A stretch of 64,000 nucleotides of DNA from an uncultured bacterium (lineage in GTDB: Bacteria > Acidobacteriota > HRBIN11 > JAKEFK01). The position numbers and the translations under genes were made by a program. Under the pieces are notes generated by a model that searched no databases, was not told where the DNA came from, and was given only the letters and a program-made list of their open reading frames with translations. The stretch lies in contig CAVZQN010000004.1 in NCBI GenBank assembly GCA_963777505.1, positions 768,001 through 832,000 on the forward strand, in the 5' to 3' direction. Positions 6,902 to 10,187 of this stretch are shown in pieces (positions within the stretch are counted from its first letter, which is position 1; each line of letters begins with the position of its first letter).

Positions 6902-8444
6902 TTAATTCGCTGGCTTCGCATCGTAGATCCGGAGTGCGAAAGTGAGAGGCGGCTCCCAATTGATTTTACGGGATATTGCTATCGTTTCAGGTTGAATCTC
7001 AAGTGGAACAATCGCACGAATTTCTGCGATCCGTTTTAATGCAATTCCGTAATACATATTTCGTGTTTTCAAATTGGGTTCGCGCCATGCAAGATCAATC
7101 GTTCGATCCAACTCAGGATCTGATAACCCTTGATAATTTTGATTAATCCTTTTATCCGGATGTGGGGAACGCATCAATATATCGAGCGCCAAACTAGCAG
7201 ACAGTGTCTCGCATGAAAAGCCAACCAGAGTAAAATCCGATTTGTTCTCTGCGATAAAGGGAAAGTATTCTGTTTTCGGCATTGCATTTACTGTGACTCT
7301 GATGCCGACAGAAGCAAGCTGACGAGCGACCTCATCCATAATCTGTACATCATTTACATACCTGTCTTTTGTTCCATCCAGGCGGATGGAAATTCCGTCT
7401 GGAAATCCTGCCTCTGCAAGTAATCGTTTTGCTTGAGCGCGGTCTACTTTCGGAACCGTGATCTCAGGGTTGTACCCTGCAACCTGTGGCGGTACCAGTT
7501 GGGATGCGACTTCTGCTTTTCCATGCAGTGCCCGGCGTACGAGTTCTTCGCGATCAATCGTAAGTTCAATGGCTTTCCGCAATCTGATATCGGAAAATGG
7601 TGGACGATCCATTCGAAATGTTAAAAACAAAACACGTGTGCCCGCGCGGCTAACAAGTTTTATTTTTCGGTTGGATTGAAGCCGATCAATTTGTTCCAAC
7701 GGAATGTTGTCTGCGATCTGTGCTTTCCCTGAGAGCAATGCTTCAATCCGCTTATTCGCATCAGGTTCGATAACAAATCGGACTCTGCTAAATGCAGGAG
7801 CTGGTCCACGAAAATAGCGATTTTTGATCAGGATCAATTGAGAACCTCGATCCCATCGTTCTATTGAATAGGGGCCAGTCCCAACAGCGGGAATTGGATT
7901 CTTTTGTAAAGCATCTTTCGGCAGAATAAATCCAATCGGTAAATGGGACAATAACATTGGAAAAGGATAATGCGTCCTAATTTCCACGCGGTCCGAGCCA
8001 ACAGTATGGAGAGATTGAATCGGCAATAAGAAACCAGCAGTAACAAAAGGACGTTTTAAGGCTGTTTCCAATGAACTAACAACATCTTCAGCGCGGACCG
8101 GAGTCCCATCTGAGAACCGCATCCCTTTTCGAAGATGAAATGACCACGTGTAGTCATCCAGATTTTCCCAGCTTTCAGCAATTGCAGCTTCAGGATTCAT
8201 GTCGCTTCCGAACCGAACAAGGCCTTCGAATACATTCGAATTCAAATCCAGCGTGAAGGACTCTGCGCTGAATTGGCGGATTTGGAAAAATGCCAATAAC
8301 ATCTGCGCGGGTTACCACTGTTAAAACTTCATCGGGACTTGAATTCGCACCTCGATCACAGTGCAAAGTTATCGATGAGAGAAGAAGGATCAAACAAATT
8401 TTTACTGCGAAAGAAATCTGGAGATGAATTGTTTGAGTCCTCAT
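6902..8444 (-). CDS. ABC transporter substrate-binding protein, family 5 (peptide/nickel), frameshifted near 8266-8272
   Basis: FEGLV, F.LR.G..FSDGTPV.A.DV..S and GTGPY motifs in 6902-8302; signal peptide and N terminus lie in ORF 8190-8444 in another frame. Confidence 0.8.
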
Positions 8445-8508
8445 AATCGCCCGCTTAAGAGGCTATAGACTAAGGCGGATTCTTTCCGTCCTGCCGTATT
8501 CTCAGTAC

Positions 8509-9181
8509 TTACGTGATTTTCCAGAAGGGTGATGTCAGACCAATGTTTTTGAAAATTTCTTGTCCTTCGCTGGGGGTATAACGTCGCCAGTCTGGATTGC
8601 GTCTGTCTGGCGTGTACCAGGCTTTCGCAAGCTCCCAGGTTTGTTCCATTGACATGATTGCGCCAAGCGGTAATTTCCATTGATCGCACCAGTTTCTGAC
8701 ATGCTCTTCCGACCGGAAGAAAAGCATTGTTTTTCAAGTATAGACAACGTTGTCCCACCAATGTTTTGCGGGAACAGCGAAGTGAACTACAGCTTCATCG
8801 TAATCAACTTTGCCTCGGCGAATTGCACAATGAATTGCAGTTCCGCAGCATCCACATGCGCTATCAATTTTTCCATCACTGCGAAGCATCGCTGGAACAC
8901 CTAACGCATCCCACGCACAATTGGCATAACGTGAACGTCCGCGTGCATCAATTACAAACGGAGTTGGCACTGCAGAAAATGGCATCGCCATTAATATTTC
9001 GCCATTCTTTTGCAACGCAAGGACATGTGCATCTGCCAGACGCGCAAAGCCATCTAACACTTCTTGCTGTGTCACATGTACGGAATTCGCAATCTGTTCA
9101 CTCGTTGGAATATCTCCTTTGTTAATGATCCGGCTGTACACGAGCTGGCGAAGCTCAACGTCCGTTAACGACCTTTTTCAT
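8509..9181 (-). CDS. merB: organomercurial lyase MerB-like protein, probable selenoprotein (Sec at TGA 8734-8736)
   Basis: MAMPFS..PT and ANCAWDALG (catalytic Cys/Asp), then WWDNVVYT-TGA-KTMLFFRSEEH in frame with ORF 8509-8727; ATG at 9181 needs one base removed from a 5-A run, otherwise GTG at 9141. Confidence 0.85.
8701..8727 (-). promoter_or_regulatory. bacterial SECIS-like hairpin
   Basis: mRNA AUGC-UUU-UCUUCC-GGUC-GGAAGA-GCAU; G-starting apical loop 19 nt after the in-frame UGA. Confidence 0.75.
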
Positions 9182-9296
9182 TGTTTTAGTCTAAACGAAT
9201 CAAGACACCCTACAAAACCTGTGAAATTCAAATCTGAACTGTGACTGTTTTTGCTCGTGCAATTCCAGATACCATTAATTATTAGGAGGATTGAGT

Positions 9297-10187
9297 ATGC
9301 CACATTATCCCTTTTACCAGGTGGACGCATTTACAGATAAACCGCTTGAAGGCAATCCATGCGCCATTATTTTGAATGCTGATGATCTGCAGTCCACAAT
9401 GATGCAACAAATTGCACTTGAAAATAATCTTTCCGAAACTTCATTTGTATTGCGCTCAGAGGTCGCTGATTTTCGCGCACGCTACTTTACGCCTGCTGAG
9501 GAAATTCCGCTTGCGGGTCATCCTACAATTGCCACCATTCATTTGCTTGCAGAAACGGGGAAAATCAAACTAAAAGACACGAAAACAACAGTCACATTGG
9601 AGTTGAAGGCTGGAGTCATTCCAATTGAGCTTGAGTCTAAAGCATCTGGCAATGTGCTGATTACAATGAATCAGCTAAAACCTCAATTTCTATCCACGTA
9701 TAAAGCTGATGAAATTGCGAGCGCATTTTCGCTCACACCTGAAGACATTTTGTCAGATTCTCCAGTACAGACAGTAAGCACCGGGACACCCCAGCTGATG
9801 ATTCCACTCCGGAATCAGGAAAGTTTGCGAAAGGCTGTTATCAATAATTCTCTTTATACTGAGTTGCGTAAACGTGCAGATTTTTTTAGCGCGCATCTGT
9901 TTTGTCTTCAAGGCTTCACAAAAGCAGGACACACCTCGGCAAGGCACTTCGGCACTCCACCTGACACTTTTGAAGATCCATTCACAGGTTCAGCAACAGG
10001 CGGGATGGCTGCATACGTCTGGCACTATGGATTGATCAAAGAGCCACACTTTATTGCTGAGCAAGGTCATTGGATGAACCGGCCTGGCAAAGCACAGATC
10101 GAAGTTATCGGTACACGAGATGACATTCAAACTGTGAGGGTTGGCGGTACTGCTGTAACAGTTTTGAAAGGTGAATTGCTTCTATAG
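9297..10187 (+). CDS. PhzF family isomerase
   Basis: QVDAFT...GNP, NLSETSF, E.PLAGHPT, EDPFTGSA motifs. Confidence 0.92.
   Translation: MPHYPFYQVDAFTDKPLEGNPCAIILNADDLQSTMMQQIALENNLSETSFVLRSEVADFRARYFTPAEEIPLAGHPTIATIHLLAETGKIKLKDTKTTVTLELKAGVIPIELESKASGNVLITMNQLKPQFLSTYKADEIASAFSLTPEDILSDSPVQTVSTGTPQLMIPLRNQESLRKAVINNSLYTELRKRADFFSAHLFCLQGFTKAGHTSARHFGTPPDTFEDPFTGSATGGMAAYVWHYGLIKEPHFIAEQGHWMNRPGKAQIEVIGTRDDIQTVRVGGTAVTVLKGELLL

Follow-up and report, generated by a model that had tools for sequence, protein, structure and literature searches.

Three described protein families come closest to the gene reported here, a MerB-like gene on the minus strand of a 64,000-nucleotide stretch of DNA (the window; contig CAVZQN010000004.1, positions 768,001 to 832,000) from an uncultured Acidobacteriota bacterium (assembly GCA_963777505.1). 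The organomercurial lyase MerB of Escherichia coli R831b (PDB entries 3F0O, 3F0P and 1S6L) shares with the encoded protein the Pfam domain PF03243, the fold, the Cys96-x-x-Asp99 motif and a third ligand position at Cys159, but has Cys159 where the protein studied here has selenocysteine (Sec), and identity in structural alignment is 19-22%. MerB2 (5C17) is the best PDB match both by sequence (E 1.5e-12) and by structure (template modelling (TM) score 0.64), but it is copper-binding, carries Ser in place of Asp (CAISTL versus CAWDAL here) and has Cys instead of Sec. The third family, SaoL (selenocysteine-assisted organometallic lyase), is a MerB-like protein with a CU dipeptide whose Sec aligns to Cys159, and its description places it in a nine-gene SAO neighbourhood of exclusively anaerobic hosts, notes that it is truncated at UGA in databases, and doubts that it acts on mercury (Haft & Gwadz, bioRxiv preprint, 10.1101/2022.07.06.499078). 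Two reviews on the selenoproteins of prokaryotes, published in 2022 and 2026, list no other MerB-like family in their accessible parts.

The region at 8509..9141 is very probably the gene of a single MerB-fold selenoprotein and not two small open reading frames (ORFs). A Sec-type MerB-like gene had been noticed here in a first-pass annotation of the window; this observation is confirmed and its interpretation is supported by the analyses below. The gene resembles SaoL in its MerB fold, in the position of Sec at Cys159, in the truncation of database records at UGA and in the doubt about mercury as substrate. It differs in that SaoL has a Cys-Sec pair, the SAO neighbourhood and anaerobic hosts, whereas the present gene and its relatives have Thr-Sec, no conserved neighbourhood and mainly hosts from soil phyla. 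These relatives share the motif T-U-x-[TAN]-M, in which Thr precedes Sec (U), and form a second lineage of Sec-containing MerB homologues, apart from both SaoL and canonical MerB, which we regard as real and well supported. This Thr-Sec clade is undescribed in the literature searched, although supplementary tables of selenoproteome surveys may list it.

The MerB-like reading frame and its active-site residues

Two minus-strand ORFs, 9141..8734 (GTG start, 135 amino acids) and 8727..8509 (72 amino acids), lie in a common frame with only TGA (8736-8734), AAA and ACA between them. Translation with TGA as Sec yields a protein of 210 amino acids that runs from GTG 9141 to the TAA at 8511-8509, reads ...HWWDNVVYT-U-KTMLFFRSEEHV... 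around the recoded codon and carries Sec as residue 136. The sequence and this translation thus bear out the single frame that the first-pass annotation had described as interrupted only by TGA-AAA-ACA (...DNVVYT-U-KTMLFF). Its ORF coordinates hold as well, once they are assigned to the minus strand; of the predicted length of about 210-223 amino acids, the 210-residue form stands, and the 223-residue form does not, the ATG at 9181 being out of frame.

The read-through protein matches the Pfam MerB profile PF03243 across the TGA, at profile positions 1-125 of 126 and with a score of 117 bits, where 27 is the cut-off (E 6.9e-34), the domain occupying residues 55-176. When searched separately, the N-terminal ORF covers profile positions 1-83 and the C-terminal ORF positions 88-125; since each matches its own part of the profile, the two ORFs are halves of one domain. 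No second match to PF03243 is present in the whole genome. In an alignment with PDB entry 3f2g, NCAWD falls on C96-A-L-D99 and the TGA column on Cys159 of E. coli MerB, so that the codons of Cys75-Ala-Trp-Asp78 (8908..8919, minus strand) correspond to MerB Cys96 and Asp99, and the codon at 8734..8736 to Cys159. This is the pairing expected in the first-pass annotation, which had placed the TGA at the second active-site Cys, and Cys itself occupies the column in the full-length homologues P0010, P0011 and P0019. After MerB2 (5c17), the top PDB sequence matches were MerB entries (3f2g, 1s6l and others). C75, W77 and D78 are invariant in a 42-sequence alignment (A2), in which T135, the Sec column, F142, R143, S144 and E145 are conserved at 90% or more.

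An AlphaFold2 model computed from a 42-sequence alignment reached a predicted local distance difference test score (pLDDT) of 96.7 and a predicted TM-score (pTM) of 0.92. Foldseek comparison of the model with the PDB returned exclusively MerB or MerB2 at ranks 1-11 (E 2e-12 to 3e-8), followed by a match at E 0.28. About 35 additional residues extend the protein C-terminally past the Pfam domain.

Conservation of the UGA codon and the downstream hairpin

A search of 5.8 billion proteins returned 956 matches, and among the best 120, which were inspected for coverage, 112 covered only 57-64% of the query. All six short homologues that were fetched (6/6) end in ...VVYT, directly before the Sec column. 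Databases thus hold the gene in forms of 135-150 amino acids, in line with the expectation of the first-pass annotation that standard pipelines would split it in two. Two further homologues, P0056 and P0116, diverge upstream of the Sec column in a frameshift-like manner.

At the nucleotide level, a scan of the same phylum detected a homologue in 17 of 201 genomes (E <= 1e-10) at 19 matched places, 17 of which contain exactly one in-frame TGA; the other two are L037, a full-length gene with TGC, and a split gene represented by its N-terminal half. A scan of one genome per species yielded 374 relatives, with TGA at the column in all but one of the best 80, and a second scan using the Cys form P0010 as query yielded 29 loci, 26 with TGA and three with TGT. 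Taken together, alignment at the column was possible for 127 loci, of which 123 are distinct and come from at least eight phyla; of these 123, 119 carry TGA, one TGC and three TGT. As best matches to a Sec-form query that are mutually related, these loci speak for conservation and not for natural frequency. Two TGA loci, L030 and L033, come from the unpublished genomes G024 and G152, and without both the tally is 117/121. In contigs X1, X2 and X7, which were assembled from sequencing runs and represent relatives of the source genome and not the source sample, no change at 8734-8736 is among the changes listed.

A few loci deviate from this pattern. In L098 (6385-6411) a second TGA takes the place of the conserved Trp shortly before the column (W-U-EDIVFT-U), in L148 the column reads TGT and the hairpin is retained but the upstream frame is lost, and in genome G002 the gene was matched as two pieces (L038/L040). 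These oddities are likely errors or decaying copies.

The only locus that does not align at the column is L108 (6384-6620) of Geodermatophilus pulveris DSM 46839, which has TAG at the Sec position, an open homologous frame to the end and an intact hairpin. The same species encodes a 96-nucleotide tRNA (L150:1501-1596; 64.2 bits on the tRNA-Sec model) with the anticodon CTA (CUA), located about 100 nucleotides upstream of selA (413.4 bits). L108 is therefore an apparent case of UAG-encoded Sec in the MerB-like clade, and this tracking of the tRNA-Sec anticodon by the codon at the column can hardly be accounted for if the column is anything but Sec. The primary paper on alternative Sec codons is reported to have involved Geodermatophilus. 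Some species decode UAG, UAA or sense codons as Sec with a tRNA-Sec of matching anticodon, as a review describes (PMC10778597).

Downstream of the UGA, positions 8721-8704 (minus strand) contain the UCUUCC/GGAAGA hairpin and its GGUC loop that the first-pass annotation had noted. Its 7-bp stem (8721-8715 with 8710-8704) begins 12 nucleotides and its loop (8714-8711) 19 nucleotides past the UGA, and its outermost pair is U.G in the window. To judge this candidate Sec insertion sequence (SECIS) comparatively, 115 distinct stretches of 51 nucleotides were aligned from the TGA, placing the stem in columns 16-22 and 27-33. In this set, 96.1% of the cells of the 7-bp stem are paired and both sides change in five of the seven pairs. 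Pair 16-33 is C-G in 64, U-A in 26 and U-G in five sequences, and at the closing pair 22-27, 106 sequences have C-G, two A-U and two G-C. Sliding the partners by one to three columns lowered pairing from 86.8% to 42-56% (calculated for the whole tested structure including the lower stem), and the observed measures were reached by none of 500 shuffles.

The hairpin is also coding, with TTC CGG TCG GAA specifying F-R-S-E, and its codons are far more uniform than the rest of the same genes, which served as the background. CGG is kept at the Arg site in 111/117 sequences (background 29.7%), TCG at the Ser site in 110/115 (33.7%), GAA at the Glu site in 98/118 (27.9%) and TTC at the Phe site in 118/118 (77.6%). 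The stem-loop is thus kept with both covariation and synonymous-site constraint, which answers the question of a SECIS raised by the first-pass annotation. Both the hairpin and F-R-S-E are absent from the well-aligned Cys-codon forms L037, L146 and L147, a small sample of three. F-R-S-E is shared by the Sec forms and the three Cys forms fetched as proteins (P0010, P0011 and P0019), and is absent from archaeal homologues and from MerB and MerB2. It appears that the SECIS RNA has fixed this part of the protein sequence.

One element of the initial description was not retained: conservation of the hairpin does not extend to the lower AUGC/GCAU stem, with 64.9% of its cells paired and A10-U36 present in 22/115 sequences, and neither a bulged U nor a lower stem is conserved across the 115 sequences. 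A possible lower stem of AUG (8727-8725) with CAU (8703-8701), extending the structure to 8701..8727 on the minus strand, can form in the window only, where the centroid fold includes it. An Rfam scan of 8400-9300 at E <= 10 gave no SECIS family and two chance-level matches on the other strand. The SECIS of E. coli fdhF lies in the coding region, with G and U in an apical loop about 20 nucleotides after the UGA. The hairpin described here is likewise a coding stem-loop that closely follows the UGA and carries G and U in its apical loop; it differs from the fdhF type in that a 7-bp stem with a GGUC tetraloop is conserved and no Rfam match is obtained.

The source genome (5.23 Mb, 14 contigs, 95.86% complete) encodes the machinery for Sec insertion, for which the first-pass annotation had proposed to search. 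A tRNA-Sec was detected with the Rfam model (69.6 bits) and by ARAGORN (tRNA-SeC, anticodon tca (UCA)), and profile searches identified selA (564.6 bits), selB (400.4 bits) and selD (349.5 bits). The selD gene (L017, G000:C1:410139-411071, minus strand) contains one in-frame TGA at its GG-U-AGK site and is thus itself a selenoprotein gene. A hairpin capped by CC-GGU-GG follows the selD UGA at a spacing similar to that of the MerB-like gene. Across the phylum, selA is present in 17/17 genomes with the MerB-like gene versus 163/201 overall, a consistent but weak association among related genomes that are not independent.

Proposed mechanism, possible substrates and alternative readings

Based on these elements, we infer SelB-dependent Sec insertion, in which the UGA at 8736-8734 would be read by Sec-tRNA(UCA) and SelB would bind the 7-bp GGUC-capped hairpin 12 nucleotides downstream and deliver the Sec-tRNA. 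In the folded protein, Sec136 would take the place of Cys159 opposite Cys75 and Asp78; an organometal cation would then be held at its metal by thiolate and selenolate, with Asp as proton donor to the leaving carbon. Homology and the predicted fold make protonolysis of the MerB type, in which Cys75, Asp78 and Sec136 would cleave a carbon-metal bond, the most likely activity. Candidate substrates are trace-level methyl- or aryl-mercury or another organometal(loid); that the substrate is an organomercurial is a distinct possibility, to which we give somewhat less than an even chance.

The genomic context offers no mercury-resistance genes. Families of mer genes are absent among 16 scanned window ORFs, within about 8 kb of the gene, and in the source genome neither a MerT nor a MerA over the cut-off was found, the best MerA-model match scoring 366 bits versus 454. 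This match was rejected as MerA, as it has a C-terminus of the lipoamide-dehydrogenase type and no Cys-Cys pair, features of the C-terminal motifs that we take to separate the two enzymes. The initial statement that no merA, merR or merT lies nearby is therefore upheld and, for MerA and MerT, extended to the genome. Among 113 immediate neighbours at 71 related loci, a Pfam scan identified no mer proteins, and when 841 flanking ORFs from 79 loci were clustered, no family occurred in more than eight loci (the gene itself and antisense ORFs excluded). Because it is a solitary gene whose neighbours vary and that is not accompanied by merA, merT or merR, it is not part of a classical mercury-resistance operon.

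Several observations weigh against the reading of this gene as an intact MerB-type selenoenzyme. The 11 top PDB matches have TM-scores of about 0.5-0.65 (0.51-0.64 normalised to the query), so that similarity of the model to MerB, at a TM-score of about 0.6, is moderate. At the Sec column, the full-length homologues P0012, P0013 and P0040 have Gly, Arg and Trp, which may represent real loss of Sec or sequencing errors; if encoded by GGA, CGA and TGG, these residues would each be one base from TGA, and all three sequences are on contigs of less than 2 kb. The TGA counts are not independent samples, because the loci are related best matches. Taken alone, the hairpin of the window is not unusually stable (z -0.50 for a 61-nucleotide fold; 60/200 shuffles at least as stable), and because its single-sequence stability is no better than chance, support for it is comparative. 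The ATG used by the homologues (9181-9179) is out of frame by two nucleotides in the window, and the next gene, encoding a solute-binding protein (minus strand, 8190-8444 and 6902-8302), is split near 8263-8290 beside a T5 run. Finally, the Hg-Se bond is very strong and hinders release of Hg(II), and efficient turnover of mercury is disfavoured because of this bond strength and because MerA is not available as acceptor.

The last point bears on the substrate and leads to the alternative that survives best, namely a MerB-fold selenoprotein with a non-mercury substrate, which would cleave or bind organotin, organolead or organoarsenic compounds or serve in metal binding or metal transfer. We consider this alternative to be close to an even proposition. 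The lack of merA and merT in the genome and of mer genes beside the 71 related loci favours it, as does the impeded product release expected for mercury. It would also fit the NikA-like solute-binding protein encoded directly downstream in this genus, and MerB complexes in PDB entries 5u79 and 5u7a-c, which are presumably those with organotin and organolead. On the other side, the full protonolytic triad of Cys, Asp and Sec is kept with an invariant Asp78, unlike in the copper-binding MerB2 with its Ser, and no alternative substrate is suggested by the context. The absence of MerA together with the strength of the Hg-Se bond points either to mercury action at trace level or in a single turnover, or to a different organometal.

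A further alternative concerns this copy only and leaves the family functional: the loss of two nucleotides would have removed the start and left little or no functional protein in this genome. Homologues start 13-14 codons upstream of GTG 9141 with MKK(G/T)(T/S)LTD..., and their ATG is in frame at the same-genus locus L041. In the window, this ATG is followed by a stretch that is two nucleotides short relative to relatives (9171..9181, minus strand), and no in-frame ATG, GTG or TTG lies between an upstream TGA (9180-9178) and GTG 9141. The relative's contig X2, about 93% identical, has one additional base behind 9170 and one behind 9173, which restore ATG AAA AAA GGT ACG and hence MKKGTLTD, the N-terminus of P0002. 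The frame loss at 9170-9174 may thus stem from an error in the assembly or reflect a genuine truncation of the N-terminus. Against a damaged copy, GTG 9141 is usable and leaves the whole Pfam domain (55-176) intact. Moreover, an A5 run holds part of the difference, and the second frameshift, in the solute-binding protein gene, is at a T5 run; that gene is intact at L041, where it encodes 508 amino acids. With two indels next to homopolymers less than 1 kb apart, the pattern suggests that a long-read assembly has left errors in the consensus. We regard damage to this copy as improbable.

Membership in the SaoL family, and thus in the SAO system of anaerobes, is very unlikely. The shared position of Sec at the Cys159 equivalent and a weak match to the SaoL model NF040728 would favour it. 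This match, however, scores 49.8 bits versus a cut-off of 140 and covers residues 15-114 only; the dipeptide is T-U instead of C-U, the hosts belong mostly to soil phyla, and no neighbourhood is conserved around the related loci. Sao models gave no match in a scan limited to five flanking window ORFs and the solute-binding protein of L041. The first-pass annotation was thus right that a Sec-containing MerB-like family had been described, namely SaoL, but the present gene is not a member of it. Canonical MerB equivalogs likewise remained below threshold (NF033555, 55.9 bits versus 200; NF009710, 58.7 versus 193), and no model of NCBIfam release 20.0 is over its cut-off for the Thr-Sec clade.

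That the TGA is a true stop, leaving a truncated MerB-like gene or pseudogene and an unrelated or leftover small ORF, is hardly credible: gene callers and public databases do give the short form, the single-sequence hairpin is not significant and frameshifts occur nearby in the assembly, but the downstream 72 amino acids continue the MerB profile, and 119 distinct genes spread over many phyla conserve them in frame, the codon is always TGA except for the TAG of G. pulveris, whose tRNA-Sec reads UAG, and the truncated protein would be without its third active-site residue.

Hosts, reach and neighbours of the Thr-Sec clade

According to record titles, hosts of the Thr-Sec selenoproteins belong to Gemmatimonadota, Acidobacteriota, Chloroflexota, Verrucomicrobiota (Udaeobacter) and Dormibacterota, to Actinomycetota (Gaiellales, Thermoleophilia, Ilumatobacteraceae and others), and to metagenome-assembled genomes of Eisenbacteria, Calditrichota and Neomarinimicrobiota. 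The database homologues that were examined are fragments of about 150 amino acids without one catalytic residue, and one of them, NCBI record P0103, is named 'organomercurial lyase'. Because records are fragmentary and no NCBIfam model covers the clade, surveys of merB in metagenomes may miscount or misjudge it. To our knowledge, the genes for methylmercury degradation outside mer operons are unresolved, and the Thr-Sec clade bears on this question. A selenolate in the metal site of a carbon-metal lyase, in hosts without MerA, also raises the questions of how turnover works and whether mercury is acted on.

More tentatively, and as a picture that we consider rather doubtful as a whole, the clade could be a large, uncurated group of selenoenzymes, consisting of stand-alone MerB proteins with Sec across dominant, mostly uncultured soil phyla and perhaps serving mer-independent demethylation of methylmercury or other natural organometal cleavage, with F-R-S-E fixed by the SECIS and UAG in use in Geodermatophilus. 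For the study of SECIS elements, the 115 distinct sequences with one hairpin and several compensatory variants, together with the UAG case, provide a natural data set on SECIS constraint.

In the window, which has a G+C content of about 44%, the gene is neighboured by the NikA-like family-5 solute-binding protein gene directly downstream and by genes for an FG-GAP protein, a divergent PhzF isomerase and a CNNM/CorC transporter. Recurrent neighbours across the clade are local to individual groups: Gaiellales-like loci show purH plus a major facilitator superfamily transporter, and Gemmatimonadota show DUF2784. Adjacency of the solute-binding protein gene to the MerB-like gene is confined to this genus, where both the window and L041 have it. 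In contig X2, 66 other bases stand in place of 37 bases of the spacer between these two genes (window 8459-8497).

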